Shown piece after piece: positions 18,467-61,191 of a stretch of DNA of 64,000 nucleotides. The position numbers were made by a program, and so were the translations under genes. The number at the start of each line of letters is the position of its first letter. Positions within the stretch are counted from its first letter, which is position 1. Source of the DNA: Treponema sp. (GTDB taxonomy: Bacteria > Spirochaetota > Spirochaetia > Treponematales > Breznakiellaceae); assembly GCA_009785545.1 (NCBI GenBank), contig WQWD01000001.1, positions 1,344-65,343 of the forward strand, in the 5' to 3' direction. Under the pieces are notes generated by a model that saw only the letters and a program-made list of their open reading frames with translations, did no database searches and was not told the DNA's origin.

Positions 18467-19831
18467 CTACCAGGAAACTACTATACCAACAGGAATGCTA
18501 AAGGCATATCTGTCGTTCTGTAAAACCTGAGAGCTAAGCGGGGTTCCGTAGGTGTTCATTTCGAATTTAAGCCCACCACGGAGCTGAACATTATCGGTGA
18601 TATTATACCTAGCAAGACCTTCAACGATGAACGTATGTCTGCCAAAATCATGCTCTCTGGCACCACCCATGTTTTTAATTGTCGCAAAATAATTACGCAC
18701 CATTAAAGTCCCCCTCAAGGTTTGCGTAAATACATACTCAATATGCAGCTCGTTGTACAGAACAAATCCCCTCTCATCATCCAACAAATGAATTGGCACA
18801 TATTGTGCGGCAAAAGTGTCTTCCGCCGCCAAAGTGTGGAAACTAACGTTGTTGAATAACCCAACTGTTAAACCAGGAATGATGTCAGTAAAATTAATAT
18901 CAAGGTGAACGGCATTTTTAAGCGGTTTTCTGATTTCATCGTCTGAGTCAACCGTTGCTCTATAGCTTAAATGACCAGAATAGCCCACGCCAATTTGAAG
19001 TCTGTCAATCTCTACGATCCCGTACAAGCCAAAGTTGTGGTATACAGTGCCAAGATCTAAAGTTCCTAAGCCGGCTTGCGTACGGTTTATCCGATATGCC
19101 ATTCCGACAGTAAGTAATTGCGGCATAGTATATTTTAAAGAACCGCCGAAGTTATAGGTCGAGTATGCAGGAACAATTGTGTCTCCGATGTCACCAGTTT
19201 GACCAGAACCATCGGCTACTCTTCTGCCAAGCCAATATTCATTAGGTGCAAAAAAACCACTGATCTGAACTTCACCAAGATGACCAAGGGGGATAATACC
19301 TGTAGGCATGAAACCAATAACATTGCTGCCCAAACCAAGAGAGTCAGATGAAGTAATTACCAAGTCAGGGTGACCACCAAAACCTTCACCAATACCAAAG
19401 AGCATTACACCCAAATCTCTGTCGCCGCCTATTTTTTCCACCACTCTTGCAGTGAATCTACCAATCTGCCCACGAAAATGAGGACCAATTCTTCCCCATG
19501 CTGTAACATCTTCAATTAACGGCAAGTTGTTATTCATTAAATTTTCGAACCTAAAGCCAATTTTTGCACCAAATCGCCCGTCAGGATCCGTGTATCTCAT
19601 GTCAAATTCTGTGTCGTTAAAATTGGGATTTCTCATGAAAAACAAACTGTTTTCCCTGGGCATTTCCGCTTCCTCAATAAAAAAATCAGTCCTAATATCT
19701 TGATGAAGAAATTGCACAAAATCCGCGGCAACCTCAACTCTTACTCTAAAACCGCTTTCTTCTGCAAATAATGCGGCAGAGCCAAAGACAACAAAAACCA
19801 AAAACATAGCTGCAAATTTCATTCTTCCCAT
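18467..19831 (-). CDS. Predicted outer-membrane beta-barrel protein (paralogue 1)
   Basis: SPI signal (ALFA-EE), many alternating amphipathic strands, aromatic C-terminus FSIPVGIVVSW. Aligns by eye with 59662..61191. Confidence 0.75.
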   Translation of the reverse strand: MGRMKFAAMFLVFVVFGSAALFAEESGFRVRVEVAADFVQFLHQDIRTDFFIEEAEMPRENSLFFMRNPNFNDTEFDMRYTDPDGRFGAKIGFRFENLMNNNLPLIEDVTAWGRIGPHFRGQIGRFTARVVEKIGGDRDLGVMLFGIGEGFGGHPDLVITSSDSLGLGSNVIGFMPTGIIPLGHLGEVQISGFFAPNEYWLGRRVADGSGQTGDIGDTIVPAYSTYNFGGSLKYTMPQLLTVGMAYRINRTQAGLGTLDLGTVYHNFGLYGIVEIDRLQIGVGYSGHLSYRATVDSDDEIRKPLKNAVHLDINFTDIIPGLTVGLFNNVSFHTLAAEDTFAAQYVPIHLLDDERGFVLYNELHIEYVFTQTLRGTLMVRNYFATIKNMGGAREHDFGRHTFIVEGLARYNITDNVQLRGGLKFEMNTYGTPLSSQVLQNDRYAFSIPVGIVVSW

Positions 19832-19886
19832 TAAAATTCTCCTTTAAAAAATTTTTTACTTTAAAAAATTCCTTACTTTCATTATG

Positions 19887-19939
19887 AGTACCAGCCACAT
19901 TTGGTGACCGGTACTTCTAAACTGAATAACATTCAGTTT
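19887..19939 (-). promoter_or_regulatory. Two tandem stem-loops upstream of barrel gene 1
   Basis: AAACTGAAT-GTT-ATTCAGTTT, then AGTACCGGTCAC-CAAAT-GTGGCTGGTACT with two G-U pairs on the minus strand. Confidence 0.65.
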
Positions 19940-19947
19940 TGTTAAAA

Positions 19948-22900
19948 TTATGGCCTTAGCCGATCCTGGAATGAGTTCAACCATCCAAGCCATTCGTAGT
20001 ACAATCCTGGGTTTTGCTTACCGGGGTTGTGATACCAGTCCATAGAACAACCAAAAGCGTCCTGTAACATCACGTAGTAGTCAATCAGGTTTTGCGGAAA
20101 CCCTGAATAAACCCACATACTTGGCGAAGTACCTCCTGATGAATCTCTTACAGGAGGAGGTGTATCCATCAATGAATTGGCAAAAGGACCTAAATCATAG
20201 ACAAAATCCTGCCATCTCCATTCCTGCATCCACCTTGCGCGAGCTCCTGCAGCACCGTTAGGTGGATGAGGAGCAACAGTTGCACCTGTTGTTGTAACTC
20301 TCATAGGAAGCCAAATATAACGGGCATCGTAGTTTTTAGTATTGTCCCAGCTATCAGCCATGTGGATATATTTGCCCCATACCAGTCTGCCTGCACGAGG
20401 TTCCGGCATAGATGTTTCCCCGAATATTGGACGCAGGTAAATGCCATCATCCCAAAGACGCCTTAGCTCTCCATAGTAAAGCTGAGGAGTATTAAACACA
20501 TTTACATCTATGTCAACAAAGTTAGCATCAAGAAAGCCAATAACATCCCATATATAAGGCGGGAAGCGAAGCTGTTGCACATGAGTAACCTGTCCGTCAA
20601 AACCCTTAGTAATTACAGACCCGTCATCTGCTGCTCCAAACATGAAGGAGCTGGCAGTACCGGTCATAGTCCCTCCAGTCCCCTGAATAGTTATCCAGCC
20701 CGTACTGTTCTGCCATGTACCACCAGGCGGTTGATTATTTGGAGTACCCCAAACAGCATCAAAGTTAGCAGAAACGTTTGTTGTCCCTACAGGCGGCTTA
20801 ATGTTAAAAGGATAAGGCGCACCTAAAATCCTGCCGCCCGGTCGAGAAGTACGGTAAACACCTAACGGATTGGGGAACCAGCCGGTTGAGGTTGAAGAAG
20901 CAACAAAGTAAAGAACATCTTCTCTGACGCCATCTGCATTTAGCGGTGAAAGCGGACCTAAAGTACCGTCAGGATTTACGTATCCTTCATAAGTCATATT
21001 CGGTGTGATGAAATGGACAAATGGTGCTGGAGCCTCCCTCTGCGGACCGAAAACCCAATTGAAATTGTGACCTAACCTGTTGTCGTGACCTTCCAAAAGT
21101 AATTCGTCAGAACTATTACCAACGGAAAAGCGCGGAACCCCAATAAACCTTGTATAGGTTTCATCAAGCATTGTTATTGCCAAAACTCTGTTTTCCTGAG
21201 TGGAACCAAAATGGAAAGCAGTACCGCAACTATCTATAAAAACGCTCTGGTCGCGGGTCATCCCCATATGATTTGTTTGGTCCCAAACACCTTCAACAAA
21301 GGGAAGCTTGTATGACCATAGTTTTTTGAAAGGACCGGCAGGGTGCTGTGCGACAGAAACTGTCACCCTCGCAGTGCCGTAACCAATGCCAATAACACCT
21401 CCTTCAACATGAGTAAACATAACGTACGGGAAAACACCGGTGGAATCCCTAAAAGGTGTAATGGGGTTACCTGTAAGTGCATGTACGCCTGTACCTGCAT
21501 TGTAGATTACTTTTGGCCGCTCAACAGTTGTGCGGTGATTCCACCAACGGTACAATTGCTTGCGCCGCCAAACCGGAGTATCACGATACAAAGCATTGAG
21601 TTGCCGTACTCTTTCCGCAGTCAGCCCCATAGCTCTCGCAAAAGGCCTAGCAGCAGAATCTTGATAAAGATACAACGGTGGGCCAAGTTCTCTATCCGCA
21701 CAACACCCTGTTGGGCAGTCTCTGTGTCTTGTGGGGATAAAATTTCTTATTGCAGCCCATGCATCCATCTGAGCTTGTCTAGGCATGGGACCTCTTAAGA
21801 GTGTTGGTGGATCCCATATCATGTAATCTCCCATATTCTGACCTGATCCATCCGGACTGTTATTTCTCATTCGCCCATTAGGAAACCACTCTCCACCGGG
21901 GGTAATAAAACCGTCTGCGTCCCAATCACCCAGTGTTCTGCGCCAATGGTTCACAGCCCACATAAACCCATGTGTCGCAGTTGTTCCTGCCGGCCAATTA
22001 TCTGCCGGTCGATTGAAACCACTGGCGTTAAATCTGGTACCGTCCCAGCCTCCCGGAAAACCGTTCGGATCATGGGAGTGAGATTCGCGCCATTCCGGTT
22101 CGTCGAATATAGTATTATTGAAAATGGGGAAGGCAACACCTTCATCTCTCCAGTTGTACAAGTCGGCAGAGGAAAATGCGTGAACGCCCGGCTGCCCGCC
22201 TCCTGTCATTGCACTCCAATCAGCAGAGTCGAAACCTCCAACACGAGTCCCCCAGTTTAACCTGCTCTCACCGTACCACCACCATCTTTGTGTGTGGCGA
22301 TCCCACATTAACCCACCTCCATGGGCTGAAACGTGGTTGCCATTGTTGTCAGCCCAAAGTATCTTCTGGGCAAAGCGGTTAAATGTATCGGGTCTTGCAC
22401 GCTGGGCAAAAAGCCTGGCAAAATGGTCGATATTTGTTCTATAAAAATCAATCTGCTCCTGGATTACACCTGCGGAGTTTTCCAAAAACCTTTGTGCATG
22501 ACCACCGTAGTTGATCAAAATAGCATTGGTAAAACCATAATTTGCAGGAAGAGCCGAACGTATCGCATTAGACCTTCTGACACTTTCATACAAACCGGAC
22601 ATATCAACTGTAAAGGGGCGATCTGTCCGGTAGACATGAAGCCTGGAAACTTGTGTAACCATCGACAACCTGCCAGCCCAGTGGTTACGGTAGCCATCAA
22701 GCATACGGAATGTAAGGAAGCGCCCGCTTGCGGAATCAAAAGTTGCAACAAAGCGGTGGTTATCTCCCTGATCCGGTCTGATAATCAGATTTGCTGTCCG
22801 CTCAAGGACACGCCACCAACCAAAACCAACCCGTCTATCCATTGGAAATTCATCGCCGGGCAAAATGGGAGTGTCGGTCAGGAAAATCTCGAATACCGTT

Positions 22901-23439
22901 ACAATCCCGTTACTATTGACTGAAGAAGCACTTCCACCGAATTGACCAGTAGAAGCATCACCAAAATTTGCCCAACCTTCCTGATAGCCACCGGGTTGCG
23001 CCCACTGCCAAACCGGAAAATACTCTACCCTGGAAATATTGTCCATGTGCATACCTAAATCAATTTGAACCCAATGAGGCCCGTAAAATTCCGGACTTGG
23101 GTGTTGTGCCATACCCCCACCTGGTGTCATACCCCAGCCCCAGAATAAATTATCGTTACTATCAAGAATAACTCCGGGATCCTGGTTAACTGCACCTGCT
23201 TCCGGAGTTGCACCCACGCCGCCATTACTTGTATAAGCAAGACCGCCGGAAACTGTTACAGCATTAACACCCCTAGTTAACGGTACACGGATAAAATTTG
23301 GGGTATTTTGGGCTACCCGATCCGCCGAAAGTGTTAAAGATTCCGGTGAAAAAACTTCCGAACAGGAGAGCAGCATTACCCCGGCAAACAATATTATTGC
23401 TGCAAATGCAACAACACAAAATTTTCTGTTTCTATTCAT
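19948..23439 (-). CDS. Lipoprotein: discoidin-like domain + GH43_24 (exo-beta-1,3-galactanase-like) with large insertions
   Basis: Lipobox LLS-C. Motifs W.DNNGNHVSAHGGG, WWWYGE, SSADLYNWRDEG, VERPKVIYN, MTRDQSVFID, QREAPA, STGWFPNP, FDGQ, YIHMADSW and RYIWLP. Confidence 0.85.
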   Translation of the reverse strand: MNRNRKFCVVAFAAIILFAGVMLLSCSEVFSPESLTLSADRVAQNTPNFIRVPLTRGVNAVTVSGGLAYTSNGGVGATPEAGAVNQDPGVILDSNDNLFWGWGMTPGGGMAQHPSPEFYGPHWVQIDLGMHMDNISRVEYFPVWQWAQPGGYQEGWANFGDASTGQFGGSASSVNSNGIVTVFEIFLTDTPILPGDEFPMDRRVGFGWWRVLERTANLIIRPDQGDNHRFVATFDSASGRFLTFRMLDGYRNHWAGRLSMVTQVSRLHVYRTDRPFTVDMSGLYESVRRSNAIRSALPANYGFTNAILINYGGHAQRFLENSAGVIQEQIDFYRTNIDHFARLFAQRARPDTFNRFAQKILWADNNGNHVSAHGGGLMWDRHTQRWWWYGESRLNWGTRVGGFDSADWSAMTGGGQPGVHAFSSADLYNWRDEGVAFPIFNNTIFDEPEWRESHSHDPNGFPGGWDGTRFNASGFNRPADNWPAGTTATHGFMWAVNHWRRTLGDWDADGFITPGGEWFPNGRMRNNSPDGSGQNMGDYMIWDPPTLLRGPMPRQAQMDAWAAIRNFIPTRHRDCPTGCCADRELGPPLYLYQDSAARPFARAMGLTAERVRQLNALYRDTPVWRRKQLYRWWNHRTTVERPKVIYNAGTGVHALTGNPITPFRDSTGVFPYVMFTHVEGGVIGIGYGTARVTVSVAQHPAGPFKKLWSYKLPFVEGVWDQTNHMGMTRDQSVFIDSCGTAFHFGSTQENRVLAITMLDETYTRFIGVPRFSVGNSSDELLLEGHDNRLGHNFNWVFGPQREAPAPFVHFITPNMTYEGYVNPDGTLGPLSPLNADGVREDVLYFVASSTSTGWFPNPLGVYRTSRPGGRILGAPYPFNIKPPVGTTNVSANFDAVWGTPNNQPPGGTWQNSTGWITIQGTGGTMTGTASSFMFGAADDGSVITKGFDGQVTHVQQLRFPPYIWDVIGFLDANFVDIDVNVFNTPQLYYGELRRLWDDGIYLRPIFGETSMPEPRAGRLVWGKYIHMADSWDNTKNYDARYIWLPMRVTTTGATVAPHPPNGAAGARARWMQEWRWQDFVYDLGPFANSLMDTPPPVRDSSGGTSPSMWVYSGFPQNLIDYYVMLQDAFGCSMDWYHNPGKQNPGLYYEWLGWLNSFQDRLRP

Positions 23440-23457
23440 AATTACCTCTCATAAAAA

Positions 23458-24393
23458 TTAGCTTAAAATAATTTCAGGCGGTCTTCGCGGCGGATTCAGT
23501 ATGTAAATCTGAGCCAAAATTCTATCCGCTGCCTGGTTAATCTGTAACTGCTGTAAAAACAGCATTTCAGGTGTTACCTCAACTCCCACCCCAAATTCGA
23601 ATTCTAATAGAGGGGTAGCATCTTCCACCGCATCTAAAAGACGTCGCCGGCGAACGTCGGTTATCGAAGTATTAAAGAGTAAGTTTCTTCCTTCAATAAC
23701 GACCGCAGTCAGATAGGCAAAACACAGCTCAGTGCCAATAGTCCTGAAAATAATATTCGCAGCACTGGCGTTCCTGGCAGCAGCCCCGACAGTGTCCGCA
23801 TATCTCCAGCGAATCTGAATGTAGCGAAAGCTAACTGTTTGTGCAGAGGTTAAGTAAATATAAGCCATCCCCGCTATGTGGGCGACAGTGCCGGTATCCA
23901 GCAAATGAATGCCAGCATCTGCTGTATTCCAACCGAAATCTCTTGTGGAAACAAATATTTCATAACTGTGACCGGTAACACCAAGACCTCCGCCTACAGT
24001 CCCACGAACATACCCAATGACACCTGTTCTTTGGGGACCTATTTCTACTAACTCCCCAAGATCCAAGGTAATCCAGTGTGCTCCACGCAACGGAACTCCC
24101 TCATCAGATTCATGACCATTGTTTACACCGGAATGCCACCAATTGCTGTTATCGCCGTTTACAGCCCAATCAGCCGGCCCGGCGGTGCTAGTAGCCGGCT
24201 CCTGATGACAACAAGCGCTGGCAACAATTGGGTTGCTTCCGCCTATAGCCCCACGCAAACCTGGGATACCTTCTAATCTACCCCAAAAATCATCTGGAGA
24301 CAGACCAAAATTTGATGCCATGTTCTCCAACTGACAGGTGGTAAATGCCAAGATTCCTAATATTAGTACCGGAATCATCCATAATTTCTTCAC
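23458..24393 (-). CDS. Lipoprotein with discoidin/F5-8 type C-like domain and helical C-terminal module
   Basis: Lipobox FTT-C. AVNGDNSNWWHS..AHWITLDLG..YEIFVST..FRYIQIR. GTG start with GGAGG RBS. Confidence 0.7.
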   Translation of the reverse strand: MKKLWMIPVLILGILAFTTCQLENMASNFGLSPDDFWGRLEGIPGLRGAIGGSNPIVASACCHQEPATSTAGPADWAVNGDNSNWWHSGVNNGHESDEGVPLRGAHWITLDLGELVEIGPQRTGVIGYVRGTVGGGLGVTGHSYEIFVSTRDFGWNTADAGIHLLDTGTVAHIAGMAYIYLTSAQTVSFRYIQIRWRYADTVGAAARNASAANIIFRTIGTELCFAYLTAVVIEGRNLLFNTSITDVRRRRLLDAVEDATPLLEFEFGVGVEVTPEMLFLQQLQINQAADRILAQIYILNPPRRPPEIILS

Positions 24394-24421
24394 TTTATAC
24401 TTCCTCCTATATGCCTTTGGG

Positions 24422-24916
24422 TTAGTTTAACCTTGATAATAAATCACCAAATCGATCCGTAAAGCTATCAACCTCTGCTTGATAATTAAAAAATTGAATA
24501 GCTTGTGCTGACGTTAAAATACTGGTTGGGTTTTCCGGAACATTTAAATAATGGTATGCCCCCTTAGTAATTCTTACACCTTCATCGTCATATACGCCAT
24601 GCATCATCTCATGGAGCATTCTGGTTCGGATAGGGTGGCCTTTAACAACAGTAAACGTATTAATACCTATCTCGTAGAGTTGCTCTAAACGCTCTACTTC
24701 AATTTGTATACTTGCAATTATCCCTCCCCCGGATATTATTGCATCCACCTCTGCTCTCCATTCATTGCGATCTTGAGTACGAGCATTCCGCTGTGCATCA
24801 GTGAGTATCAGCAAATTCAGGGTTTCGATAAAATCAGAGTCGTTTTCAAAGCCGCAAGCAGCAAAAAACAAAATGACAATAAGCGGCAAGAAAAACCAAT
24901 TCAATTTTTTTCTCAT
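24422..24916 (-). CDS. Small helical lipoprotein, unknown function
   Basis: Lipobox FAA-C, AGGAG RBS, sits within the operon. Confidence 0.7.
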   Translation of the reverse strand: MRKKLNWFFLPLIVILFFAACGFENDSDFIETLNLLILTDAQRNARTQDRNEWRAEVDAIISGGGIIASIQIEVERLEQLYEIGINTFTVVKGHPIRTRMLHEMMHGVYDDEGVRITKGAYHYLNVPENPTSILTSAQAIQFFNYQAEVDSFTDRFGDLLSRLN

Positions 24917-24946
24917 AAATTATTTTCTCCTAAAAATATGTACATT

Positions 24947-24985
24947 TGAGGCTGCTCCAAAACTACAGTTTCTGGAACAACCTCA
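24947..24985 (-). repeat. REP-like palindrome (AAACT/AGTTT core family)
   Basis: TGAGGTTGTTCCAGAAACT-GT-AGTTTTGGAGCAGCCTCA. Similar to the elements at 43123 and 43197. Confidence 0.75.
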
Positions 24986-24995
24986 TTTATCCTAA

Positions 24996-27353
24996 TTAAT
25001 TTGTGTTTGGATGCCCAAACGCAGAATTTATTGCGTTTACAGAACCCAAATTTATCCCAAGATCGTCAGGCAAGGAAATGTATTCAAAATCAGGCGGTGT
25101 TACACCACTTCTCGGGTTTGCCAATGCTCTGGAATATATTCGAATATCCATAAATCGGGAATTCGCACCTACATTATTTGGTGCATGCAAAAAAGGTGCT
25201 CTGCCCAAGTAAGCATAGCGCAGTGGAGGTGTAACTGCATCGGCTGCACCAAAAATAGGATCGTCATGTATTCTGGAAAAATTGCCGCCACGGTTAGCGT
25301 GTGTTGCTTGACCTCCATTCCTCATAATTCCCACTGCAGAGCCGTGTTTTACTACAGTAAGATGATTCCATCTGTTAACACGGCCTCCGCCAATTCCGCC
25401 GCTGCCGCCAACACTTACAATACTAGCAGTCTGATCACCAGTGGCAGGGGTACTTCCGGCATTACGAGCTCTAAACCAGAGTGCAGGATTATGGAATTGC
25501 AGAGTTCCACGCCAGTTTGTAGTATTATCGTTTACACGGTCATTTGCAAAACCAAAAAAGGTACCAGCGTCAGTAGGGATATTGGCATAAAACATAATTG
25601 TCCACTCTTCTCCACGCATCAATGCCCCTACGTTTGGTCCAAGATCAACCCAGCTATTGGTATTAGGCAACCGGATAAATCGGTGACCGGCGGTTTCATC
25701 AGCAACAGCGTCACCCATTAATACTGCCTGATAAAAATCGCCGGAATGGGCAATATTTCTTAAAACACCGTCATCACCAACAACAAAATGTACATTAAGG
25801 AATTCGCTTGGCTCCGCCCCCTGGCGCATTACCCTTACGTCTCTGTCAGCAGCACCTACAAAGTTGCCGCCTTGGCTAAATGTTCCGGTTAAGATGGAAA
25901 TACCATGTTCAGTACCTACAGGGCGCGTTACAATACCTGCATCAGTAACAACAGCCTGATTGCTCGAAGTCCAAGTTATATCATAACTTCCAAAGGACAT
26001 TGGCAAGGTAATGTTTTGGGTAACAGTGCTTAAATCACCTAAAGAAAACAATGCATCTGCCACATCATCTGTGAATAAGCTGATAATTCTTGCAAGAAAC
26101 GGGTGAGTAGTTACTTCGACACTGTCGATTGATAAAGTAACGGTGAGGGTAACATCTTCACCGGTTACTTGAGGGCGATTGACTACACCTGCATTGCTAA
26201 GAATGGCAGTGTTGCTGGAAGACCAAGAAGCAGACACAACCCAATCTATTTCCGCAAATTCCACTGTCACTGAAGGCAACAGGGTTAAATTTTCCCTGAC
26301 TGCGCCAAGATTACCAAGGCTAACCCCCAAAATTCGAATAACTTCATCTGCGGCATGTAACCGCAGCGTTTGATTACTCAAAACAGTCACAGGAAATGGA
26401 ACTATCCTGTCAACACCGGCAGCAGTCAGAGTCGCATTAAGGGTAATTGCCGCATCACTAGCTTCCGGGCGGGTAACCACACCGGTATTGCTCAAAACAA
26501 CAGGGCTGGTAGATATCCATGTAACAGATACTTCTGTCACCGTGGGAGGCACAAGCGCACCGCCTGCCACATCCACCTGTAACGGCAAGGTTAGGTTCAA
26601 GGCAACGGCGGATAAATCCCCCATTGCCGCATTCAAACGTGACTCGGCAAGGTTCAGGATATTATTAGCTACACTTACATTATTTATAACTGTCATATTA
26701 ACAACACCCGGTCTTGCCCTCGTAACGCTGCCATAATTGACAGTCAGATCAAGGTTGACTGTCGTATCATTAGGCGGGAGAATGCCATTAACCAGCATGC
26801 CGTAATTGTCTATAACATCCTGCCTGCTGGAAACCCAAACCACCTCGAATAAATAACTCAAAGTGATCCCAAAAGGCAGTCGAATGTTATCAATTATGTT
26901 ATTCAGATCATAAGCAGCGAATACAGGCAAGAGGTATTCGTCGATAAAACTGTCGATATAGGCTCCCAACTGAGACTCTGTCGCCCAGTGCGCATAAGCG
27001 GTAAACTCGTATGACGCTAACATCATCCAGTCCCTTTCGGTTATCCTAATTGGGCTTAGTGGACCTGTATCTCCCAAGGGGGCTGGGGATGTAAAATAGC
27101 CGACAAAATGGAGATTATCTGGGTGGGTGGTTGGAATAGGGTAATCCCTGCCAATAAAACTCGGAACCCGAGATGTCCATGTTATCGAAGACTCACCTCC
27201 CTCAAATGTGCCGCCATTTGCACTAAATGTAATGGAGAAGCCCTCACCTGCCGCCGGATCATCTACTACCGGATCCGGACTCGGGCAACTTACAAGCCCA
27301 ATCATCATTGCAAGGGAAAAAAGTCCCAGCAATCCTAAAATTTTCTTTTTCAT
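24996..27353 (-). CDS. Lipoprotein: InlB-B-like repeat + 4 atrophied bacterial Ig repeats + LamG-like domain
   Basis: Lipobox LVS-CP. ITFSANGG..FVGYF..AYAHW. Repeated W.SS...V....GVV.RP units. LamG C-terminus is paralogous to 13887..15755. Confidence 0.8.
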   Translation of the reverse strand: MKKKILGLLGLFSLAMMIGLVSCPSPDPVVDDPAAGEGFSITFSANGGTFEGGESSITWTSRVPSFIGRDYPIPTTHPDNLHFVGYFTSPAPLGDTGPLSPIRITERDWMMLASYEFTAYAHWATESQLGAYIDSFIDEYLLPVFAAYDLNNIIDNIRLPFGITLSYLFEVVWVSSRQDVIDNYGMLVNGILPPNDTTVNLDLTVNYGSVTRARPGVVNMTVINNVSVANNILNLAESRLNAAMGDLSAVALNLTLPLQVDVAGGALVPPTVTEVSVTWISTSPVVLSNTGVVTRPEASDAAITLNATLTAAGVDRIVPFPVTVLSNQTLRLHAADEVIRILGVSLGNLGAVRENLTLLPSVTVEFAEIDWVVSASWSSSNTAILSNAGVVNRPQVTGEDVTLTVTLSIDSVEVTTHPFLARIISLFTDDVADALFSLGDLSTVTQNITLPMSFGSYDITWTSSNQAVVTDAGIVTRPVGTEHGISILTGTFSQGGNFVGAADRDVRVMRQGAEPSEFLNVHFVVGDDGVLRNIAHSGDFYQAVLMGDAVADETAGHRFIRLPNTNSWVDLGPNVGALMRGEEWTIMFYANIPTDAGTFFGFANDRVNDNTTNWRGTLQFHNPALWFRARNAGSTPATGDQTASIVSVGGSGGIGGGRVNRWNHLTVVKHGSAVGIMRNGGQATHANRGGNFSRIHDDPIFGAADAVTPPLRYAYLGRAPFLHAPNNVGANSRFMDIRIYSRALANPRSGVTPPDFEYISLPDDLGINLGSVNAINSAFGHPNTN

Positions 27354-27385
27354 ATCTTCCTCCTTAAAGAAAATATTTCTAAGGT

Positions 27386-28687
27386 TTATTCAACAACTAT
27401 GGTACATATCCAAAATTGTCCTGAGTCGCCTGTCCATTGTCGTAAAAACCAGAATGGCATAGACTCCAAACTTACCGGTCCCGCAGTGCTAGTACCGCTC
27501 GGATTGTTCAATTCGAATACGAATTCTTGCCATTCATTTGCCGTTTCCCAAGGACCTATAGTATATATGCTATAAATCCATGTCCCGGGAACTGGCTGTG
27601 CTTCCATAACAAAATCAACTGTTAGCGGGGCGTAAGCACTTCTTGCCCAGATTCTTACAACAGTGAATTCGGAAAGATCAAGCGGCGGATTATAAGGGGC
27701 TCTCATCACCCGCCAGCCATAACCGCCCGGGTAATTAATTTGCAACGCTCCAGGTCTGCCATGGCGTATAATTGCAGGATCGGTTACTCTTGATGTACTC
27801 GTATTTCCCCAAAACGAAAAAGCGGCTATAGGCATCTCCTCGAAGTTCCAAAGTACAAATCTGTCGCCTGCCTGACCTTCTTCCAAAATAGCAGTTACAG
27901 TAACATCACTAGCAGGCATGGTAAAAGTCCATGTGGAGTCGCTGCCGCTAGCTTCTACTGTGCCGCCTTCGACAAGTGTTACTGTAACTGCTTGCACCCT
28001 ATAACCTGAATTCGGCGTTACTGTCAGGCTTACTAAGTCCGTTTCATGAGCAGTTTCCGGAGCAGTAATACTGCCGTTTTCAGGCTGCACAATTGTAATA
28101 TTACGCAGAGGCGGGAGAAGCTCGAATGCTGCCGTCACAGTAACATCACGGTTGGGCATGGTGAAGGTTCTTGTATTGCCGTCACCGCTGAGCATTATTG
28201 CACCACTTACTGATGCCGCAATGATGTTTGCCAGCCTATAACCAATCTCCGGCGTTATTGTCAGCGTTACTTGTTCATTCTCTAGCGCAATAGTAGGGGC
28301 TGCGGTGACAATCCCACCTGTAACAGCCTGGATGTTGATGTTAAATCTTGAAATTTGCACAAATACTGCTGTAACGATAACATTCACATTGGGCATGGTG
28401 AAAGTTCTTGTATTACCGTCACCACTGAGCGTTACCACGCCGCTTGTAGTTGTTGCTGAAATGCTTTCCAGAAAATGGTCTGAAGCCGGAATTATCGTTA
28501 ATGTTATCGTTGCTCCAGGCATAGCTCTGGGAGGAGCTTCAACAGTACCGCTGTTCGCATTAATAGTGATACTAAAATCAATTCCAAAATTTTCGCTATT
28601 TTCTGGCACTTCAGAACCACAAGCAATGAAGAAGGTTGCAATTGTGAACAAAGCAAAAACAACTCCAACTAATATCTGCTTTTTCAT
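27386..28687 (-). CDS. Lipoprotein: 3 divergent InlB-B repeats + C-terminal CBM-like jelly-roll
   Basis: Lipobox FIA-C. Three ~79-aa units V.LT.TP..GYR...TFTMP..DVTVTA. C-terminal LWNFE..ALQINY..DLSEFT..RIWAR..WQEF (CBM11-like). Confidence 0.75.
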   Translation of the reverse strand: MKKQILVGVVFALFTIATFFIACGSEVPENSENFGIDFSITINANSGTVEAPPRAMPGATITLTIIPASDHFLESISATTTSGVVTLSGDGNTRTFTMPNVNVIVTAVFVQISRFNINIQAVTGGIVTAAPTIALENEQVTLTITPEIGYRLANIIAASVSGAIMLSGDGNTRTFTMPNRDVTVTAAFELLPPLRNITIVQPENGSITAPETAHETDLVSLTVTPNSGYRVQAVTVTLVEGGTVEASGSDSTWTFTMPASDVTVTAILEEGQAGDRFVLWNFEEMPIAAFSFWGNTSTSRVTDPAIIRHGRPGALQINYPGGYGWRVMRAPYNPPLDLSEFTVVRIWARSAYAPLTVDFVMEAQPVPGTWIYSIYTIGPWETANEWQEFVFELNNPSGTSTAGPVSLESMPFWFLRQWTGDSGQFWICTIVVE

Positions 28688-28880: not shown

Positions 28881-28922
28881 GATCTTATCAGAGTTTTAAT
28901 TTATTTAATTTTGGAGGAGAGT

Positions 28923-31900
28923 ATGAGAAAAAAATTAGTTTTAGGATGGGTAGTTACAGCATTACTGTTGGTTTTTGCGTTTACGGCCTGCCCTAACGGC
29001 GGTGATGACCCAATAGTTATCAGAGACGCAGCGTCACCGCAAATTCTAGGTCAGCCGGCAAGCAGGCTGTACTTTACAGGACAAACGGCAGTGCCGATGA
29101 GAGTAATTGCCGTTTCGCCTGACAACGGGGTTCTCGAATACCAATGGTATCGAGCAGACTCTGCAACTGGTGTAGGAACGAGGATTGAAAGCGCAACAGC
29201 GGATTCTTTCACACCTACAATACCTACAGCAATAACAGATGAGGTAGTAAGCTGGTATTATGTTGTCGTTACAAACAGAAATACCGCAGCAAACGGTATC
29301 CAAACGGCTTCTCTGACAAGTAACAGGGCGGAAATCCGAGTAGTGGAAGCACCGCCTGGGTTACCTCTAACCTTTGCAGTAAACGCTGCCGGGAATGCTT
29401 TTGTAGGAACTTTCTACACCGGAGAAACCGTGCCAGCAACACTTGGACCAAGAGCCGAAATTGTTGAAGGTATGCAATTGAACAACATTACACCCATAGG
29501 CCGAGTGGTAAACACTGGCGGGACAAACAGCGGTTTTATAGCTCTCGGCAATGCAGTGGGAGATATTCTGAACAGACTCGAAACTTGGACAATGGAAACA
29601 ATCGTTTTTGTTCCAGCAAATTACGGCTTTGTAGGCGGAGGTCACCACATTTTAGGATTTGCCGAAGTTGACAACCTCTCGCAAACAGTCCAGACAGGTC
29701 CAACAATGTGGCTCAGAGGGGACAATCTAAGCCTGAACGTCCGTACTCAAGGCTGGAGCGGAAACGAAGCCACAACAGGTGAAGTAGATGACAATATTCC
29801 TGATGTCAGAGGAGCATGGAGGCACATTGTAATTACCCAGGGAGCCAATTTGTTCAGAGTTTATATGGACGGCAATTTGGTCAGCCAGGCAGCACACACC
29901 GGGCTTACAACAACAAATCTACCCATTTTTGAGTACGGCTATCTTGGACGCTCTATTTTCCACGCTAACGATGACAGCACGCTGAGAAACACCTTGTTCC
30001 GCAGTTTTAGCATTGACGAGGGTGAAATGACACCAGCATTGATGACTGCTCGAGCTGCCGAAATTGACCAATTGCTCCATGATTTGAACGGAGCGGCATT
30101 TATCTTTGCAGTTGCACAAGATATACAGCTTCAGGAAGGTTCGGAATATGTAGATGCAGGAGCCACAATCGGAAGCTTTGTTGCTACTCACGGAAGAGCT
30201 CCTTTTACTTATACGTTTGTAGCCGGCATCGGAGATACGCATAACAGCTACTTCACAATCGCAGCAGGAAATGAATTAAGAGTTGGAAGTACAGCTCTTG
30301 ACGGAGGCGACCATAGAATACGAGTCAGAGTTACAGACGGCGAAGGAGCTACATACGAAAGAGCCGTTACAATCCGCATTATTGAAGAAATCGATCCTAA
30401 CACCGGCATAAGACTATGGTTTACTTTTGACAACCCAAGCGGTAACACCGTTTTTGACAGAACGTTTAATCACACCGGAACCCTTCACGGAGACGCAACT
30501 GTTATTGATATGGCTGGGCACAGTGTTCTGGCTCTTGGCTCCGGGCAACCGTGGTTTGATTTAGGCGCAGATGCCGGTTCCATCATAGCCGGACCGGATG
30601 TTACAGCATTCACTATTTCTGCATATATATTTGTTGGTGATGGCCCCTCTCTGGAAGGCGGAGATGCCGCAGGGTTCCAGCCTTGGTCATTTACCAGAAC
30701 GGGATCTATCGATGGCTCTGGTAATCAGGGAGTTATATATCAGATAAGAACTGGCAGCCAGGAAATTAACCATGTTACCGGAAACCAAGCCAGAAACTGG
30801 ACTCACTCAGGCACAGGGTGGAATAGAAATCAATGGGTTCACATGGTATACACCCATGTGAACGGCGGAGGAAACGCAAACAGTACCGGCACAATATTTA
30901 TTAACGGTACTCAATTAGTCCAAAACACCGGTACATTCCGAACTAACAGAACGGATGCCGGCACTATGGGTGATCTAGTCTATAACTTCCTTGGAAGACC
31001 TTCTCGCGGAACGACCGGATACATGACCAACACTAGGTATGCAGATTTCCGTGTTTACAATCGTGCACTGACTCCGGTAGAGGTTGCCGACCTTTCAACA
31101 GAACTTCATGACAGGTTTGCTTATCTAAGATTAGCTTCAGTCATAGAAGTGGTGGCGAACAGCCCGTTAGTAAGCTCTTTTAACGGCGTAATAAGAAGAA
31201 CTATCCCACTACCTACAAGCCAGAGCGGCGTAAACATAACATGGGTTTCCAGTAACCCTGCTGTTGTAACAAATGACGGTGTTGTTACCCCTCCCGCTAG
31301 CGGAGAACTGGAGAGCATTCTTACCCTAACAGCGACATTCTCAATTGGAGTACATTCCACCAGCGTAGAATTTGAAGTGATTGTATTACCGGAAGCCGAT
31401 GTTGCCGGAATCATTACTAACGAATTAATATACCACCTTACAATAGACACATTTATGGAAGGTGAAGAGGGAGAAGAAATCGCAGTAGAGAGGTTAAATA
31501 CAAGAGTTGGAAGGACAGTCCAAGGATCCAATTCAGTGACATTCCAAAACGGGGTTGACGGAGGCAGAGCGGCAGTATTTAACAATAATACAAACAGATT
31601 CCTTACTGTAACAAATGAAGACGAATCTCCGTTGCTTGCTGGCGTTGAAGAATTTTCTGTTGCATTCTGGACCAGAAGCGATCATGCACGTGCTTCATGG
31701 AAATTTTTTGCTGCAAGAGATAACCTCCAAATGGGTCCGCCTGAGTTCTATTTAGGCGACAGAATTCAAAACAATCAGTTCCATGCTGAGAGATTCTACA
31801 ATGGCAGAGCCACACCCGCATCTGCCACTCTTGGTTCAGGCGCTGGCACTGTAGCACTTGGCGTATGGAATCATGTTGCTGTTGTACATGGTACAGATTT

Positions 31901-32117: not shown

Positions 32118-32124
32118 CAACAAC

Positions 32125-32174
32125 ACCCCCGCTCTTAACCGGGCGGGGGTTATCCATGGCTTTTGCCGTGGGAT
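32125..32174 (+). promoter_or_regulatory. Two tandem stem-loops upstream of barrel gene 2
   Basis: ACCCCCGCTC-TTAACC-GGGCGGGGGT and ATCCATGGC-TTTT-GCCGTGGGAT, with G-U pairs on the plus strand. No long U-tract. Confidence 0.7.
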
Positions 32175-32201
32175 TATTAAAAATCAATAAGGAAAAAATA
32201 A

Positions 32202-33842: not shown

Positions 33843-33852
33843 GAGGATGAAA

Positions 33853-36556: not shown

Positions 36557-36620
36557 TACCAATGCAAAACTGCGAACCTCCGGTTGCGAACCTCCAGTTC
36601 GGGTTAGTTTTGCATTGGCA
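36557..36620. repeat. REP-like palindrome with an internal 14-bp direct repeat
   Basis: CCAATGCAAAACT...AGTTTTGCATTGG enclosing GCGAACCTCCRGTT twice. The loop matches the 43123 element on the opposite strand. Confidence 0.7.
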
Positions 36621-36622
36621 GT

Positions 36623-36650
36623 AACGGGGCTGAAATGCCCCGTTTTTTTT
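36623..36650 (+). terminator. Rho-independent terminator after the GH30 gene
   Basis: AACGGGGC-TGAAAT-GCCCCGTT followed by a T-run. Confidence 0.85.
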
Positions 36651-36683
36651 GTTATTATATTTTGTTGTCAAAGGAAAATGCGA

Positions 36684-44954: not shown

Positions 44955-44955
44955 A

Positions 44956-55202: not shown

Positions 55203-55208
55203 AAAAAT

Positions 55209-56426: not shown

Positions 56427-56531
56427 TGTTCTGTAATATTCGGTTAGCGGAATGACAAAGTGCGTTAATTCCTTATGTCATAAGGAATTAACTTATCAGG
56501 TATTGTGTCATTTGAATATTACAGAACACTA
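56424..56531. mobile_element. 108-bp MITE-like element with TA ends
   Basis: 18-bp perfect inverted ends TAGTGTTCTGTAATATTC / GAATATTACAGAACACTA. Internal perfect 14-bp palindrome GTTAATTCCTTATG-T-CATAAGGAATTAAC. Confidence 0.7.
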
Positions 56532-56593
56532 ATTTTATACGCTTTACAAAAACAACAAAGTATTTGCGTTGGCTCGTTAAAAGCAAAACAAGC

Positions 56594-57532
56594 TTAGTAT
56601 GGCGGAGACCAATTCCAAACGTCATCGCTAAAGGTATAAATTCCAGCTCCATGTATGGCGTAGGCTTCTTCAAAGCCCATTCCAAAAACATCGGTATTTT
56701 GATCCCCTGTAAATATTATTCCTTCGCCAATACTTACGCTTGTAACAGGATTGTTTGTGAATGCGGTTCTATCGATAGCTCTTACGTGGCCGGGAATGGT
56801 AACAGATGTCAGGTTATTGCCGAAAAACACCCCTTCGACAAGAACGACTATATAATTGGGAAGTGTTAAGCTGCTTATCTGGTTATGGGCAAACGCTCCT
56901 CGGCCAATCCTTGAAATGTTGTCAGGAATTACCAAAGTCTCAAGGGCATTATTCGCAAACGCCACTTCTCCAATTTCGAATACTCCAGTTCCGAAATCAA
57001 TGTTGGTTATCATGTTGTCAACAAATGCTCCCGCACTAATTCTGCCGAGGGAGTTGGAAATCCTTAGGTTTGTAATTCGGTTATTTGCAAAGGCGTTTGG
57101 GTAAAGGTGTTGCACACTGTCAGGGAGTTTAAGCGTTTCAATAACATTGTCTGCAAACGCCGAGGGGCCAATAACATTTACACCGTACTGAATTGTCAAA
57201 ACTTTTATGTTATTTTCCGCAAAGGCAAATTCGTCAATAAAAACAACACTACCCGGAATTTCAACATTGGTAAGTAAATTGTTGTTAAACGCATTGGATA
57301 AAATCAATTCTACAGTATTTGGAATTTCAACAGCCGTGATTCCCATATACATAAATTCTGTGGTACCAATAAACGTGACAGGAAAACCGTCTCTTTCGGA
57401 TGGAATAACGAGTATGTTTTCACCAGGGATATAAACACGGTTTGCCCTATACCCAAAAAACAAGATACCGAAGACAATGGCAAATAGAATAAATACAGCA
57501 ATTACTATTATCTTATAAGATTTAACAGCCAC
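56594..57532 (-). CDS. BspA-type leucine-rich repeat (LRR_5) membrane-anchored protein
   Basis: N-terminal TM and about 9 units of L..V.IP..V..I...AF..N. Confidence 0.88.
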   Translation of the reverse strand: MAVKSYKIIVIAVFILFAIVFGILFFGYRANRVYIPGENILVIPSERDGFPVTFIGTTEFMYMGITAVEIPNTVELILSNAFNNNLLTNVEIPGSVVFIDEFAFAENNIKVLTIQYGVNVIGPSAFADNVIETLKLPDSVQHLYPNAFANNRITNLRISNSLGRISAGAFVDNMITNIDFGTGVFEIGEVAFANNALETLVIPDNISRIGRGAFAHNQISSLTLPNYIVVLVEGVFFGNNLTSVTIPGHVRAIDRTAFTNNPVTSVSIGEGIIFTGDQNTDVFGMGFEEAYAIHGAGIYTFSDDVWNWSPPY

Positions 57533-58128
57533 CTTCTTTCCTCCCTTGAATAAACATCCCTTGGCGCATTTCGTATTCTGTTTCTAAAGAGCCTGAGATG
57601 CTCTACAGCTAACCCGGAATAACGCGGATCATGATGAATTGCTACTAAAAAGCTTTCTTCGGCCTGCTCAATATTTCCTGTAAGGATATGCACAACCCCT
57701 GCAACATGGCTGAGCCATGCGTCATTTTGCGAACTTGAATAAAAGTTGCGTCCAAGCACATTTATATCTTCAAGGGCACGAGCATATTCACCTGCGTTTA
57801 TAAATGCAAGCACCCTGAGCCCGACTGCACTAACACGCATACGACCGTAATGGACAAGAACCTTGTTTATGTCTTCCAGTGCAAGCAGAGGTTCGCCTGC
57901 TTTAATGAAGGCGGCAGCTCTGTCAAGCAAGCCATCGACATCATTTGCACGAGGCTCATTAAAATTTGAAGCGACTCCGCGATGCACATACAAAGGCCCT
58001 GCATCAGGGAAGCCGTAAAAAAGGAATGGCTGATCTTCTTCCCTGACACAAGAAGAGAATAATCCGCAAAAAAACATCACTGTTGCTGTTATACAAATAG
58101 TCCAAAACCAATTTTTTTTGAAGATCAT
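57508..58128 (-). CDS. TPR-repeat lipoprotein
   Basis: Start moved to MIFKKN (AAGGAGA RBS). Lipobox FSS-C. Helices ALEDINK, GEYARALEDIN and GNIEQAEESF..AI..DP. Confidence 0.75.
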   Translation of the reverse strand: MIFKKNWFWTICITATVMFFCGLFSSCVREEDQPFLFYGFPDAGPLYVHRGVASNFNEPRANDVDGLLDRAAAFIKAGEPLLALEDINKVLVHYGRMRVSAVGLRVLAFINAGEYARALEDINVLGRNFYSSSQNDAWLSHVAGVVHILTGNIEQAEESFLVAIHHDPRYSGLAVEHLRLFRNRIRNAPRDVYSREERRWLLNLIR

Positions 58129-58154
58129 TGTCTCTCCTTGATAGAATCTTGATA

Positions 58155-59648
58155 TTACCAATCTTTAGTATGATTTCCGCCGTTGTTGATTACAGGCTGG
58201 CCAAAAACAAATAACGATGTGATACTCATGTATCCGGCTTGTGTCAACCTGCGCTGCCCTCCAATTGAAATTGTCTGGATATCTATAGGAAAATCAAAGC
58301 CTAAATAATCTCTTTTTTGAGTCATTCTGTCTATCAAATCGTCAAATTGAGCATCGGTAATATTAAAAGCATTATCAGTAGCGGCAACAGAAACAGACCT
58401 TAACCCTCTGTAATGAATAATACCAAATTGGCTGTAACTATATGCAGGATTAAAAATCATATTACCAGATTCGGGAGGATATTCAACTTTTCCGGCTTCA
58501 AAAAAACGCCCGTTGTAAAATTTAATTGTAAAATTAAAAATGCAATTACCTTCTAAAGACAAATCCACAATCGGCGGAACTACAGTTGTAGAATTAAGAC
58601 GGCTATTACCTGGGTTAAGTTCTATTGACAAAGGTCCAAAGCGCCTATTTGCCTCATAATAAAATAAGGCACTGCCGCCGGGCCTCCTGCCGCCTTCTAC
58701 AAACCCAAGAGTGTTGGGATAACTGGCAACACCCCAACCGTCACTGCTGCCAAAACTTGCGGGGTTGGGATTCACGCTAAAGTTTAAGTGCTCGAATATT
58801 GTTGTAAATGTTCCGCCGGGAGGAGCATTCGGAATCCAGGCGCCATAGTTTTCTTCTCTTACCAGAATTATAAATTGTTCGATATCGCCGCCAACTATAC
58901 CATCCGCTGCCGCTCCGCCAAGGATTTGCGCACGCAAAAATAGAATAAAATCAGACAGCGCCTGCCCTCCGACCTGCTCTGTCATTCCATACCAGTGCCA
59001 ATCACTCCATTGATCGGGAAGAATTGTATGGTAAGTACCGTCCCTTAACCTGTGAGTCCCGGAAGGATAAGGAAATCCTGTTCCGTCGTATTCCCAATCT
59101 CTTGCTATATCCGCGCCATCAATATCCCAAATCTCAAAACCGTCCAGCAAATTTGCCTTCATTATTGCTTCAAGAGTTTGATGTACAATAGGCAAATCAG
59201 CATCTGGTATTGTAGAAAAAGTTACCCCGTCATGCCCGCCTCTAACTCCAAGTAAAACTTTTATTCCAGCTTCCTGGAGAGGTCTGATATGAGTGTTACG
59301 CCGTAGAAACAAACCCGCCAGCCAGGGAGGAGTATAAATAGATACGCCCGTTCCACTCTGCCTCAATTCCAGCGAACCCAAAATGACATAGTCAAAAAAT
59401 TGCGTTCCGTCTGCAAGAACATAATACAGGGCATTGAGCGGGTTGTATCTTTCGGTATCTATATACAACGCTACCCTGGTAATATCTGTCGGGAAAGCCA
59501 ACGGGTTGATTTGAAACTTTGCAGTAGGATCATCCGCATAAAAGGGCAATAACCCGGGAGCCCCCGGGCAAGAAATAATTGTAATTGTCAGCAAATTAAT
59601 GGCAACTAATGTACAAATATGTTTTAGGTAACGGTGTTTTTTTAACAT
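58155..59648 (-). CDS. GH18 EndoF/EndoH-like lipoprotein with a degenerate catalytic motif
   Basis: Lipobox IIS-CP. YNPLNA..Y.L.DG..FFDYVIL and HIRPLQEAGIKVLLGV.GGHDG. DGFEIWDID replaces DGxxxDxE. Confidence 0.75.
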   Translation of the reverse strand: MLKKHRYLKHICTLVAINLLTITIISCPGAPGLLPFYADDPTAKFQINPLAFPTDITRVALYIDTERYNPLNALYYVLADGTQFFDYVILGSLELRQSGTGVSIYTPPWLAGLFLRRNTHIRPLQEAGIKVLLGVRGGHDGVTFSTIPDADLPIVHQTLEAIMKANLLDGFEIWDIDGADIARDWEYDGTGFPYPSGTHRLRDGTYHTILPDQWSDWHWYGMTEQVGGQALSDFILFLRAQILGGAAADGIVGGDIEQFIILVREENYGAWIPNAPPGGTFTTIFEHLNFSVNPNPASFGSSDGWGVASYPNTLGFVEGGRRPGGSALFYYEANRRFGPLSIELNPGNSRLNSTTVVPPIVDLSLEGNCIFNFTIKFYNGRFFEAGKVEYPPESGNMIFNPAYSYSQFGIIHYRGLRSVSVAATDNAFNITDAQFDDLIDRMTQKRDYLGFDFPIDIQTISIGGQRRLTQAGYMSITSLFVFGQPVINNGGNHTKDW

Positions 59649-59661
59649 TTATTCCTCCTGA

Positions 59662-61191
59662 CTAAAGAGACATTGTAAATCCAAGAGGCACACTAAATTT
59701 TTGATTAACATCTCTTGTGTCTCTGACATTTCTGACAAATGGTAAAGGATTCCTTTGCGTATTAGCAGCGGAAGAAACTCTTTCAACCAATAATGTGTAA
59801 TTAAAAGCCGCAAAAAATTCGATATTTTCGTTTAATCTCCATGTAAGGCGAGGCTCAATAGTAGTCTCATTCATAATAAGCCATATATCACCGGCTGTGT
59901 CGGAGCGGCGCAGATTACGAGCGTAAATACCGACATTCCAGTTTTCGTCTATATGGTAAAACACTCCAAAACCGTTCCAAAGTATCCGGCGTTCAATCTC
60001 TGCGTAAGCTCCTCCTATTATATAGTGCAATACATTTCGATTAAGCTGCGTGCCGGAAAGTCTGAATATTGTATAGTCCTTGTCATTCCAAAAACTAAAA
60101 TTATGGTCGGTTCGTATGGTAAAGTTCGGGATGCCCGTGAAACGGGCATTTAAATTTATACCCTGTTTAAATACCAAAGGCCAGGTAGTTGCATGTTCAA
60201 TAGATTGTCCGGCTGTCGCAAAAGCGTCAAGGTATCTTGTTATATTTGCCGCCCAGCCCAAAGTTACAGCAAAGTCCTGCGTGGGAGTAAGGCTTGCAAA
60301 AGCACCAATATTGTGAGTGAATACCTCTGCGTCGGCGCTTATAGGATGAAGAGAGCCGCCGATTGTAGCAGTCCGAAACCTACTGGCAACACTTTCGTAA
60401 CGGACATTGTACGAGATATTCGTACTGCCCCATTCGCCCAAGTCCCAGCCAATCCTGCCCGAGTATTCCCAAACACGGCTCATGATAACTTCGCCGTCCC
60501 AAAATGTCGGGCGGCTGTATATCATATTTGTTATTTCATTGGTAGTAGCGACACCTGCTATCGACAATGGACCCCAAAAAAATTCCAGCATAAGTCCCTG
60601 GTCGCCCCTGATATTATCAGGATTAACATAAGAATTCCATGCTCCAAAAGTGCTGCCTGTATAGACCCTCATCCCGGGATCTGCACCAAGCGCATCGGCA
60701 AATTCAGCGTCGATATCACCTGCGCTTAAACGGAAATTGGGAGTAAATTGAACCCAAGCCATAAAGCCACCCAAACCCCCTCCGTCAACGGCTATTCTGC
60801 CGCCAAATCTTTCGGTTTCATAAGCTACAGTGATATGGGCATCTTCAAAAAAATTCCTGTCTACAGGGCCGATGTTAAACACAGAAAAGTCAAAACCGGT
60901 GTTCTCCCAGTTCATTCTGTCATTTCGATTCGAGTATCTTTGGCTTTCAAACTGGAACATACTCAGTCTTATATTTGTCATTGCGCTTAATCGGCCGTCA
61001 AAAAAACCATTCCCGTGCATAGAAGTTAAAATAGAATGATTATCACGGGTAAAAGCAAGAACATCTGACGGCATCGCGGGGACTTCCTCGTGAATACCCG
61101 CAGTATCTATAATACCCGGATATTCCGCTTCTTGCGCGAAAACAGGACTCATGATCATCAGCGCAAAAATGGCGCATAAAAAAAATCTCAT
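59662..61191 (-). CDS. Predicted outer-membrane beta-barrel protein (paralogue 3)
   Basis: SPI signal (VFA-QE). ERFGGRI..AWVQFTPNFRLSAG, HNIGAFASL, GINLNARFTGIPNFTIRTDHNFSF. C-terminus FSVPLGFTMSL. Confidence 0.75.
   Translation of the reverse strand: MRFFLCAIFALMIMSPVFAQEAEYPGIIDTAGIHEEVPAMPSDVLAFTRDNHSILTSMHGNGFFDGRLSAMTNIRLSMFQFESQRYSNRNDRMNWENTGFDFSVFNIGPVDRNFFEDAHITVAYETERFGGRIAVDGGGLGGFMAWVQFTPNFRLSAGDIDAEFADALGADPGMRVYTGSTFGAWNSYVNPDNIRGDQGLMLEFFWGPLSIAGVATTNEITNMIYSRPTFWDGEVIMSRVWEYSGRIGWDLGEWGSTNISYNVRYESVASRFRTATIGGSLHPISADAEVFTHNIGAFASLTPTQDFAVTLGWAANITRYLDAFATAGQSIEHATTWPLVFKQGINLNARFTGIPNFTIRTDHNFSFWNDKDYTIFRLSGTQLNRNVLHYIIGGAYAEIERRILWNGFGVFYHIDENWNVGIYARNLRRSDTAGDIWLIMNETTIEPRLTWRLNENIEFFAAFNYTLLVERVSSAANTQRNPLPFVRNVRDTRDVNQKFSVPLGFTMSL

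Follow-up and report, generated by a model that had tools for sequence, protein, structure and literature searches.

How might glycan fragments cross the outer membrane of a termite-gut spirochaete? The question is raised by a stretch of 64,000 nucleotides (nt) of Treponema sp. DNA (assembly GCA_009785545.1, contig WQWD01000001.1, positions 1,344 to 65,343 of the forward strand; the whole stretch is called the window below, and its positions are counted from its first letter), in which three genes for predicted outer-membrane beta-barrels each lie between genes for lipoproteins. These are barrel 1 (B1, P0001; 18467-19831, minus strand, 454 aa), barrel 2 (B2, P0002; 32202-33842, plus strand, 546 aa) and barrel 3 (B3, P0003; 59662-61191, minus strand, 509 aa). 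Treponema-type spirochaetes are among the main fibre degraders in the guts of higher termites. The window comes from a 2.6-Mb metagenome-assembled genome (MAG) that is 80% complete, its DNA was traced only to termite-gut metagenome DNA runs, and the named relatives of the barrel proteins are from Treponema sp. and Spirochaetia MAGs. From the analysis reported here we consider it reasonably probable that the barrels are porin-type uptake channels, and that some of their clades were recruited into glycan-utilisation loci free of SusC/SusD, in which they would be substrate-specialised.

Sequence families and predicted fold of the barrels

All three proteins begin with signal peptides of the signal peptidase I (SPase-I) type (FA/EE in B1, SA/QD in B2 and FA/QE in B3), and none carries a lipobox Cys at the cleavage site. 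No Pfam family at E <= 1 and no NCBIfam model matches B1, B2 or B3, which leaves them uncharacterised, as the initial annotation had them; among the Pfam entries without a match are LamB, the Msp/Tpr domains MOSP_N and MOSP_C, DUF560 (Slam) and, for these proteins of 454-546 aa, Plug and TonB_dep_Rec. The AF2 model of B1 is all-beta (pLDDT 81, pTM 0.76), and that of B2 has a pLDDT of 63 and a pTM of 0.67. When compared by VIA-align with about 48,000 solved chains, the B1 model best matches maltoporin (Z 20.4, 350 residues aligned), followed by OpdQ/OccD (19.5), ScrY (18.6) and chitoporin (17.9), and the B2 model best matches maltoporin (Z 18.7) and ScrY (Z 17.3); SusC chains reach only Z 11-12.6 against the B1 model. 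Neither model contains a plug or a periplasmic domain, the barrel beginning directly after the signal peptide in both. The C-terminal residue is W in B1 and F in the consensus of the B2 family. By their signal peptides and porin-like models the proteins are predicted to belong to the fold class of outer-membrane beta-barrel porins, and they are probably maltoporin-shaped outer-membrane channels of 18 strands.

The three barrels had at first been regarded as one family. For B1 and B3 this holds: BLASTP relates them only at E 0.007, and hhalign matches the profiles of their families (19 and 15 sequences) over the full length (99.9%, E 8.6e-37, 424 columns), with all five motif pairs that had been matched by eye in register. 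B2, in turn, belongs to a separate family. BLASTP and narrow family profiles connect it to B1/B3 by nothing past the signal peptide, the B2 hidden Markov model has zero matches among 199 proteins of the B1/B3 superfamily, and a search of 1.84 billion cluster representatives with a B1+B3 profile found 333 proteins, the best 150 of which include no B2 relatives. A weak link appears with wide superfamily alignments (150 sequences for B1/B3 and 38 for B2), which gave 98% and E 2e-13 over 411 columns with the signal peptides included, and 93.9% and E 1.6e-7 over the last 143 columns with the signal peptides removed, next to E 0.04-0.05 in reversed-profile controls. The link emerges only in such wide profiles. 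We take B1/B3 and B2 for two families, not for three plain paralogues; any kinship between the two would be very remote and may go back to an ancient shared ancestor.

Lipoprotein genes beside the barrels

In the window each barrel gene is preceded by a gene for a large lipoprotein on the same strand and a spacer with stem-loops, and is followed by a gene for another lipoprotein, which is the layout that the initial annotation had described. The distance to the downstream gene, which had been put at 10-25 nt, is 25 nt for D1 behind B1 and 13 nt for D3 behind B3, and at B2 it falls outside that range (4 nt to D2). Upstream of B1, U1 (19948-23439, minus strand) encodes a 1163-aa lipoprotein with a GH43_24-type (exo-beta-1,3-galactanase-like) domain, GH denoting glycoside hydrolase families. 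This membership is predicted from homology to the PDB entries 6eug (BT0265-type, 3.2e-16) and 3vsf (Ct1,3Gal43A, 1.3e-8) and from the motifs around the catalytic Glu residues, all the GH43_24 hallmarks being kept (AHGGG, ERPKV, TRDQS, QREAP, GWFPNP and WLP). Its counterpart D1 (15847-18441, minus strand, 864 aa) has a Pfam F5_F8_type_C domain, resembling carbohydrate-binding module family CBM32, and is weakly GH43_24-like: only residues 531-660 align to 3vsf (7.3e-5), RETP is kept, and the AHGGG and ERPK motifs of the base side were not found in D1. At B2, the 1068-aa lipoprotein U2 (28911-32117, plus strand) carries Laminin_G_3 lectin domains (Pfam 3e-32) together with aBig_2, and the 898-aa lipoprotein D2 (33847-36543, plus strand) is assigned to GH30 by its match to Pfam Glyco_hydr_30_2 (8.9e-56) and by NEP and TE catalytic Glu motifs that align to 3clw. 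At B3, U3 (61395-64000, minus strand, running past the window end; 1331 aa in the contig) joins an Fn3 domain (Pfam) to a GH18 domain with an intact DGVDLDCE motif, and D3 (58155-59648, minus strand, 497 aa) is a GH18 lipoprotein of the endo-beta-N-acetylglucosaminidase (ENGase) type (PDB 8u46 1.3e-18, Endo H 1.3e-8; NCBIfam Endoglyc_H at 6.8e-10, below the cut-off of that model). D3 is without the catalytic acid Glu, showing DGFEIWDIDG in place of DxxDxDxE. The notion that the lipoprotein at the +1 position, directly after the barrel, is always a dead enzyme was rejected on account of D2, which retains both GH30 catalytic Glu motifs.

The barrels were followed through 218 genomes of the window's GTDB family, 48 of which have a B1/B3-type match and 36 a B2-type match. 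Among 401 genomes sampled evenly across the phylum, a match came from a single genome of the same family and a weak one from a sister family, and scans with the B1-family profile gave 3 loci in the metagenome collection and 1 in genome contigs; going by these searches, neither barrel family seems to extend beyond a single Treponema-type family of spirochaetes from termite guts. We read the flanks of 27 B1/B3-type and 23 B2-type barrels. In a quick tree of the B1/B3 superfamily, the clade of B3 (13 barrels, support 97) is linked to GH18: in all 11 cases in which the +1 gene is visible, it encodes a lipoprotein on the same strand, as compared with a background of 8.3% for same-strand downstream lipoproteins (and 13% for lipoproteins overall) in the window genome, and a GH18-like domain stands next to the barrel in nine loci of the clade. 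Two GH18-like genes could be fully read in 7 loci, and in every one of them one gene is intact (DGVDFDDE type) and the other Glu-less (DGFEFNDxGG type); the latter type of motif characterizes the entire D3 subfamily, as against DGVDxDxE in U3 and the active-type paralogues. The gene order, which had been thought fixed, varies among the loci, the active enzyme preceding the barrel and the dead one following it in three loci (window, L048 and L051), and both following it, active before dead, in four (L008, L044, L046 and L047). A BspA-type LRR_5 lipoprotein recurs in five related loci of the GH18-linked clade, and in L048 and L051 two ATP-binding cassette (ABC) permease genes come directly after the GH18 module. 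Two further loci were noted separately. In L041 (G009:C106, 6794-7285) the GH18-like lipoprotein at +1 has 163 aa and stops before the contig end, so that it is probably truncated or frameshifted, and L011 (G000:C275, 1-2860) holds a partial barrel at the contig start, then a 756-aa calcineurin-like phosphoesterase lipoprotein that is unlike the GH partners.

The clade of B1 (5 barrels, support 100) is linked to GH43_24: in all five loci, that is in the four relatives and the window, the barrel is preceded by the GH43_24 lipoprotein of the U1 type (1150 aa; 37-55% identity), so that here the upstream gene is the conserved partner. Downstream, a D1 orthologue (as in L110) or a cut lipoprotein is present in three of four visible cases; in the fourth, L111, the gene after the barrel lies on the other strand and there is no downstream lipoprotein, a second departure from the order seen in the window. 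A third clade (8 barrels, support 99) is made up of lone genes without a lipoprotein partner, and a divergent copy in the window's own genome (L009, G000:C47, 29-1546, minus strand), which falls outside this third clade, has no GH lipoprotein either. The L009 paralogue (Pfam OMP_b-brl 5.6e-7) lies 171 nt downstream of genes for TctA and a TctC/TctB fusion (1718-4863) and may be an outer-membrane channel for tricarboxylates.

B2 is present as a single copy in its own genome, and its orthologue in a congeneric genome (L090) likewise has a Laminin_G lipoprotein upstream and a GH30 gene at +1. Another set is conserved in the sister clade of B2 (11 barrels, support 100), namely a lipoprotein of about 680 aa, a lipoprotein of the CE15 type (a carbohydrate esterase family; glucuronyl esterase), the barrel and a lipoprotein of about 740 aa. 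The last of these follows the barrel after 10-33 nt in nine of ten loci, and is itself followed by a small DUF5640-like lipoprotein in several. It has a Flg_new_2 domain and a helical remainder, for which profile searches of the Atlas and the PDB gave weak tetratricopeptide repeat (TPR) signals only. The GH fold that had been ascribed to the downstream lipoproteins is thus found in the window (D2 with GH30, D3 with GH18 and, weakly, D1 with GH43_24), and not in the B2 sister clade. The remaining B2-type clades are lone genes or tandem barrels. Among the B2-type loci, L095 (G116:C326, 30-4904) has three barrel genes together without lipoprotein partners, resembling a porin paralogue array, and L108 (G009:C58) has two identical inverted copies of a pair of barrel and 751-aa lipoprotein (710-4519 and 6633-10442) around a 2-kb centre, which points to a recent inverted duplication or else to an artefact of assembly.

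On both barrel trees the neighbour labels are clustered: none of 200 label shuffles gave a value as low, and the clade supports are 97-100. In both superfamilies the type of neighbouring lipoprotein follows the barrel clade, and the neighbours of the homologues are not random. As far as sequence can tell, this clade-by-clade correspondence fits the earlier proposal of substrate-specialised paralogues with cognate lipoproteins.

Proposed uptake channels, rival readings and known systems

In the reading that we favour, glycan operons would combine lipoprotein glycoside hydrolases and lectins, a barrel and an ABC importer. The lipoprotein enzymes would cleave the polymer, the candidate targets being type II arabinogalactan (GH43_24), xylan-type glycans (GH30) and N-glycans or chitin-type glycans (GH18). 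The cognate lipoprotein, which in the GH18 module would be the Glu-less GH18, would retain the oligosaccharide, the barrel of the respective clade would admit it to the periplasm by TonB-free diffusion, and a solute-binding protein (SBP) and ABC permeases would take over there. Each recruited clade would be paired with enzymes and binding proteins for one glycan, and the lone clades of each family are probably general or solute porins. We infer an uptake channel from the fold, the presence of ABC importers in these operons (in the window B1 locus besides the permeases of L048 and L051), the Tct-linked paralogue, the lone clades and the lack of SusD: the own genome, at 80% completeness, has no match to SusD_RagB (PF07980) and only two Plug-domain receptors. 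Several points weigh against this assignment. Confidence in the B2 model is no more than moderate (pLDDT 63). General porins, OprD-type channels and even Tom40/VDAC are found at Z 14-19; with general porins and Tom40 trailing by so little (a few Z units), the fold is no proof of sugar specificity. The surveyed genomes are akin, which deprives the counts of independence, and contigs are often cut. The partner types are mixed, comprising an active GH30, a Glu-less GH18, a partial GH43_24 and a helical 740-aa protein, and because of this heterogeneity one common lid role is unlikely. Finally, most T. pallidum lipoproteins are periplasmic, and for this reason the GH lipoproteins described here may not be surface-exposed.

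A closer coupling, in which the barrel and the adjacent lipoprotein form a stable complex, analogous to SusC/SusD and TonB-independent, with the downstream lipoprotein as a substrate-binding cap, strikes us as doubtful. We are just as hesitant about the evolutionary version, according to which termite-gut Treponema evolved, at least twice, a maltoporin-like barrel capped by a clade-specific lipoprotein that would pass oligosaccharides into the pore; in the GH18 case, and perhaps in the GH43_24 case, the cap would be a dead copy of the enzyme encoded next to it. The short gaps (4-25 nt for the three barrels of the window, 10-33 nt for nine of the ten loci in the sister clade of B2) and the clade-specific pairing of barrel and lipoprotein would suit a cap, as would the loss of the catalytic Glu across the GH18 subfamily at +1/+2, which is as expected of a binding protein, and the weak TPR/helical signals in the 740-aa partner, SusD being helical and TPR-like. 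D2, however, retains both GH30 catalytic motifs, the gene order varies and includes the GH43_24-clade locus without a downstream lipoprotein, the barrels lack both a plug and a TonB box domain, and the genome is without a SusD_RagB match. The Glu-less GH18, the degenerate D1 and the helical partner of 740 aa might each serve as a SusD-like lid, but such a role is not general, D2 having the look of a functional GH30.

It is unlikely, in our view, that the barrels are Slam-like translocators or anchors which take neighbouring lipoproteins to the surface and are not nutrient channels. Such a role would agree with the constant presence of lipoprotein genes on both sides of the barrel, with the clade-specific partners and with the fact that the route of surface-lipoprotein export in spirochaetes is only partly understood. 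In a preprint, an LptD homologue of Borrelia is implicated in this export (bioRxiv 10.1101/2022.12.21.521298). The barrels, however, match neither DUF560 nor any other Pfam family and have no periplasmic TPR domain. Their fold is nearest to 18-strand sugar porins and not to the Slam barrel, which has 14 strands, lipoprotein cargo is missing from the lone clades and from the Tct-linked paralogue, and in the loci the lipoproteins far outnumber the barrels. An uptake channel agrees better with the fold, the lone clades and the transporter context than a Slam-like display role does. Ordinary general porins, whose position in glycan operons would be inherited synteny without functional coupling, would account for the lone clades and for general porins scoring almost as high as sugar porins, but two barrel families acquired the same kind of linkage, it is kept at 30-50% identity across several genera, and the linked genes rearrange locally yet remain together, all of which makes this explanation very improbable.

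The uptake channels that we favour share features with several known systems. LamB, ScrY and ChiP are substrate-specific porins in sugar regulons of Gammaproteobacteria; they are the best structural matches to both models (Z 17-20, 320-350 residues), and here as there the gene lies inside a sugar operon with an ABC importer, and there is no plug and no TonB dependence. In contrast, the Treponema barrels have no Pfam porin match (E <= 1), and LamB-type operons lack the cognate lipoprotein enzymes and lectins by which the Treponema barrels are flanked. With SusC/SusD of Bacteroidota they have in common that the barrel gene adjoins a lipoprotein gene in a glycan locus with lipoprotein GHs and binding proteins, and that paralogous pairs would specialise by substrate. 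Unlike SusC, the Treponema barrels are 450-550 aa long and lack plug and TonB-dependent receptor domains, their partners are GH-derived or Flg_new_2/helical proteins and not SusD_RagB, and import into the cytoplasm is predicted to proceed through an ABC transporter. Slam (DUF560, in Neisseria and relatives) resembles them in that the barrel gene adjoins lipoprotein genes and the partners are paralogue-specific; it differs from the Treponema barrels, which lack DUF560 and the periplasmic TPR, have a larger porin-like barrel and lie in nutrient-polymer loci with ABC importers. The Msp/Tpr (MOSP) proteins of Treponema are likewise spirochaetal outer-membrane beta-barrels in paralogue families, whereas the window barrels have no MOSP_N/MOSP_C match (E <= 1) and another length and architecture.

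Porins in sugar regulons (LamB, ScrY, ChiP) and barrel-lipoprotein pairs in polysaccharide utilisation loci (PULs), such as SusCD, were thus already known. The novelty lies in two spirochaetal barrel families without annotation, in the linkage of cognate lipoproteins to individual clades of these barrels, and in an intact and a dead GH18 that recur as a pair. A full-text literature search of incomplete coverage found descriptions of Treponema glycan gene clusters with no mention of these barrels, and, within the same coverage, no description of how glycan fragments pass the Treponema outer membrane. The barrels are now named candidates for this crossing, with the prediction of one barrel clade per glycan, and the intact and Glu-less GH18 pair around a porin may offer a compact model of the evolution from enzyme to binding protein. 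Because they are missing from Pfam and NCBIfam, the barrel families are invisible to current PUL predictors.

Remaining genes and spacer hairpins

The remainder of the co-directional B1 locus (6481-15755, minus strand) encodes, by Pfam, an aBig_2 lipoprotein, a GH2, two proteins of the ABC permease type, an SBP (DUF3502) lipoprotein and a GH51 arabinofuranosidase. Of the two permease-type genes, only 10444-11385 matches BPD_transp_1; 9537-10487 has no Pfam match and is called a permease by its position and its similarity to open reading frames in L110 and L111. Upstream of U1 follow further co-directional lipoprotein genes (23458-28687, minus strand; F5/8-C, a small one, aBig_2 x4 and Flg_new_2, by Pfam), and orthologues of the gene at 23458-24393 are found upstream of U1 in L110 and L111. 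Directly behind the GH30 gene D2 lie genes for a DUF4468 lipoprotein (36615-37163) and for a lipoprotein with a CotH kinase domain and Big_2 (37184-39124). The GH18 module ends with a TPR lipoprotein and a BspA-type LRR_5 protein (Pfam; 56594-58161, minus strand).

The spacers in front of the barrels are 116 nt with three hairpins between U1 and B1 (19832-19947, minus strand), 84 nt with two strong hairpins between U2 and B2 (32118-32201, plus strand) and 203 nt with three long hairpins between U3 and B3 (61192-61394, minus strand). The minimum free energy is -32.2 kcal/mol (z -4.8) for the first and -34.7 kcal/mol (z -5.2) for the second, and the third has a z of -12.3 (computed for 61245-61394); none of 200 shuffles matched the stability of the spacers. 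The possibility that the hairpins are peculiar to the window genome was rejected, since strong hairpins of this kind precede the barrel in many related loci, e.g. L090, L091, L102-L104 and L048. Several of those in related spacers consist of a GC stem and then a U run, resembling intrinsic terminators. Judging from their sequences, the pre-barrel hairpins probably act as partial terminators or stabilise the mRNA, and would in this way set expression ratios.

A minor observation concerns the composition of the window proteins encoded between 7985 and 61191. Past residue 30, lysine makes up 0-1.7% of the exported proteins (lipoproteins, barrels and SBPs) as compared with 5-10% of the cytoplasmic ones, and the arginine content is normal in both groups alike.

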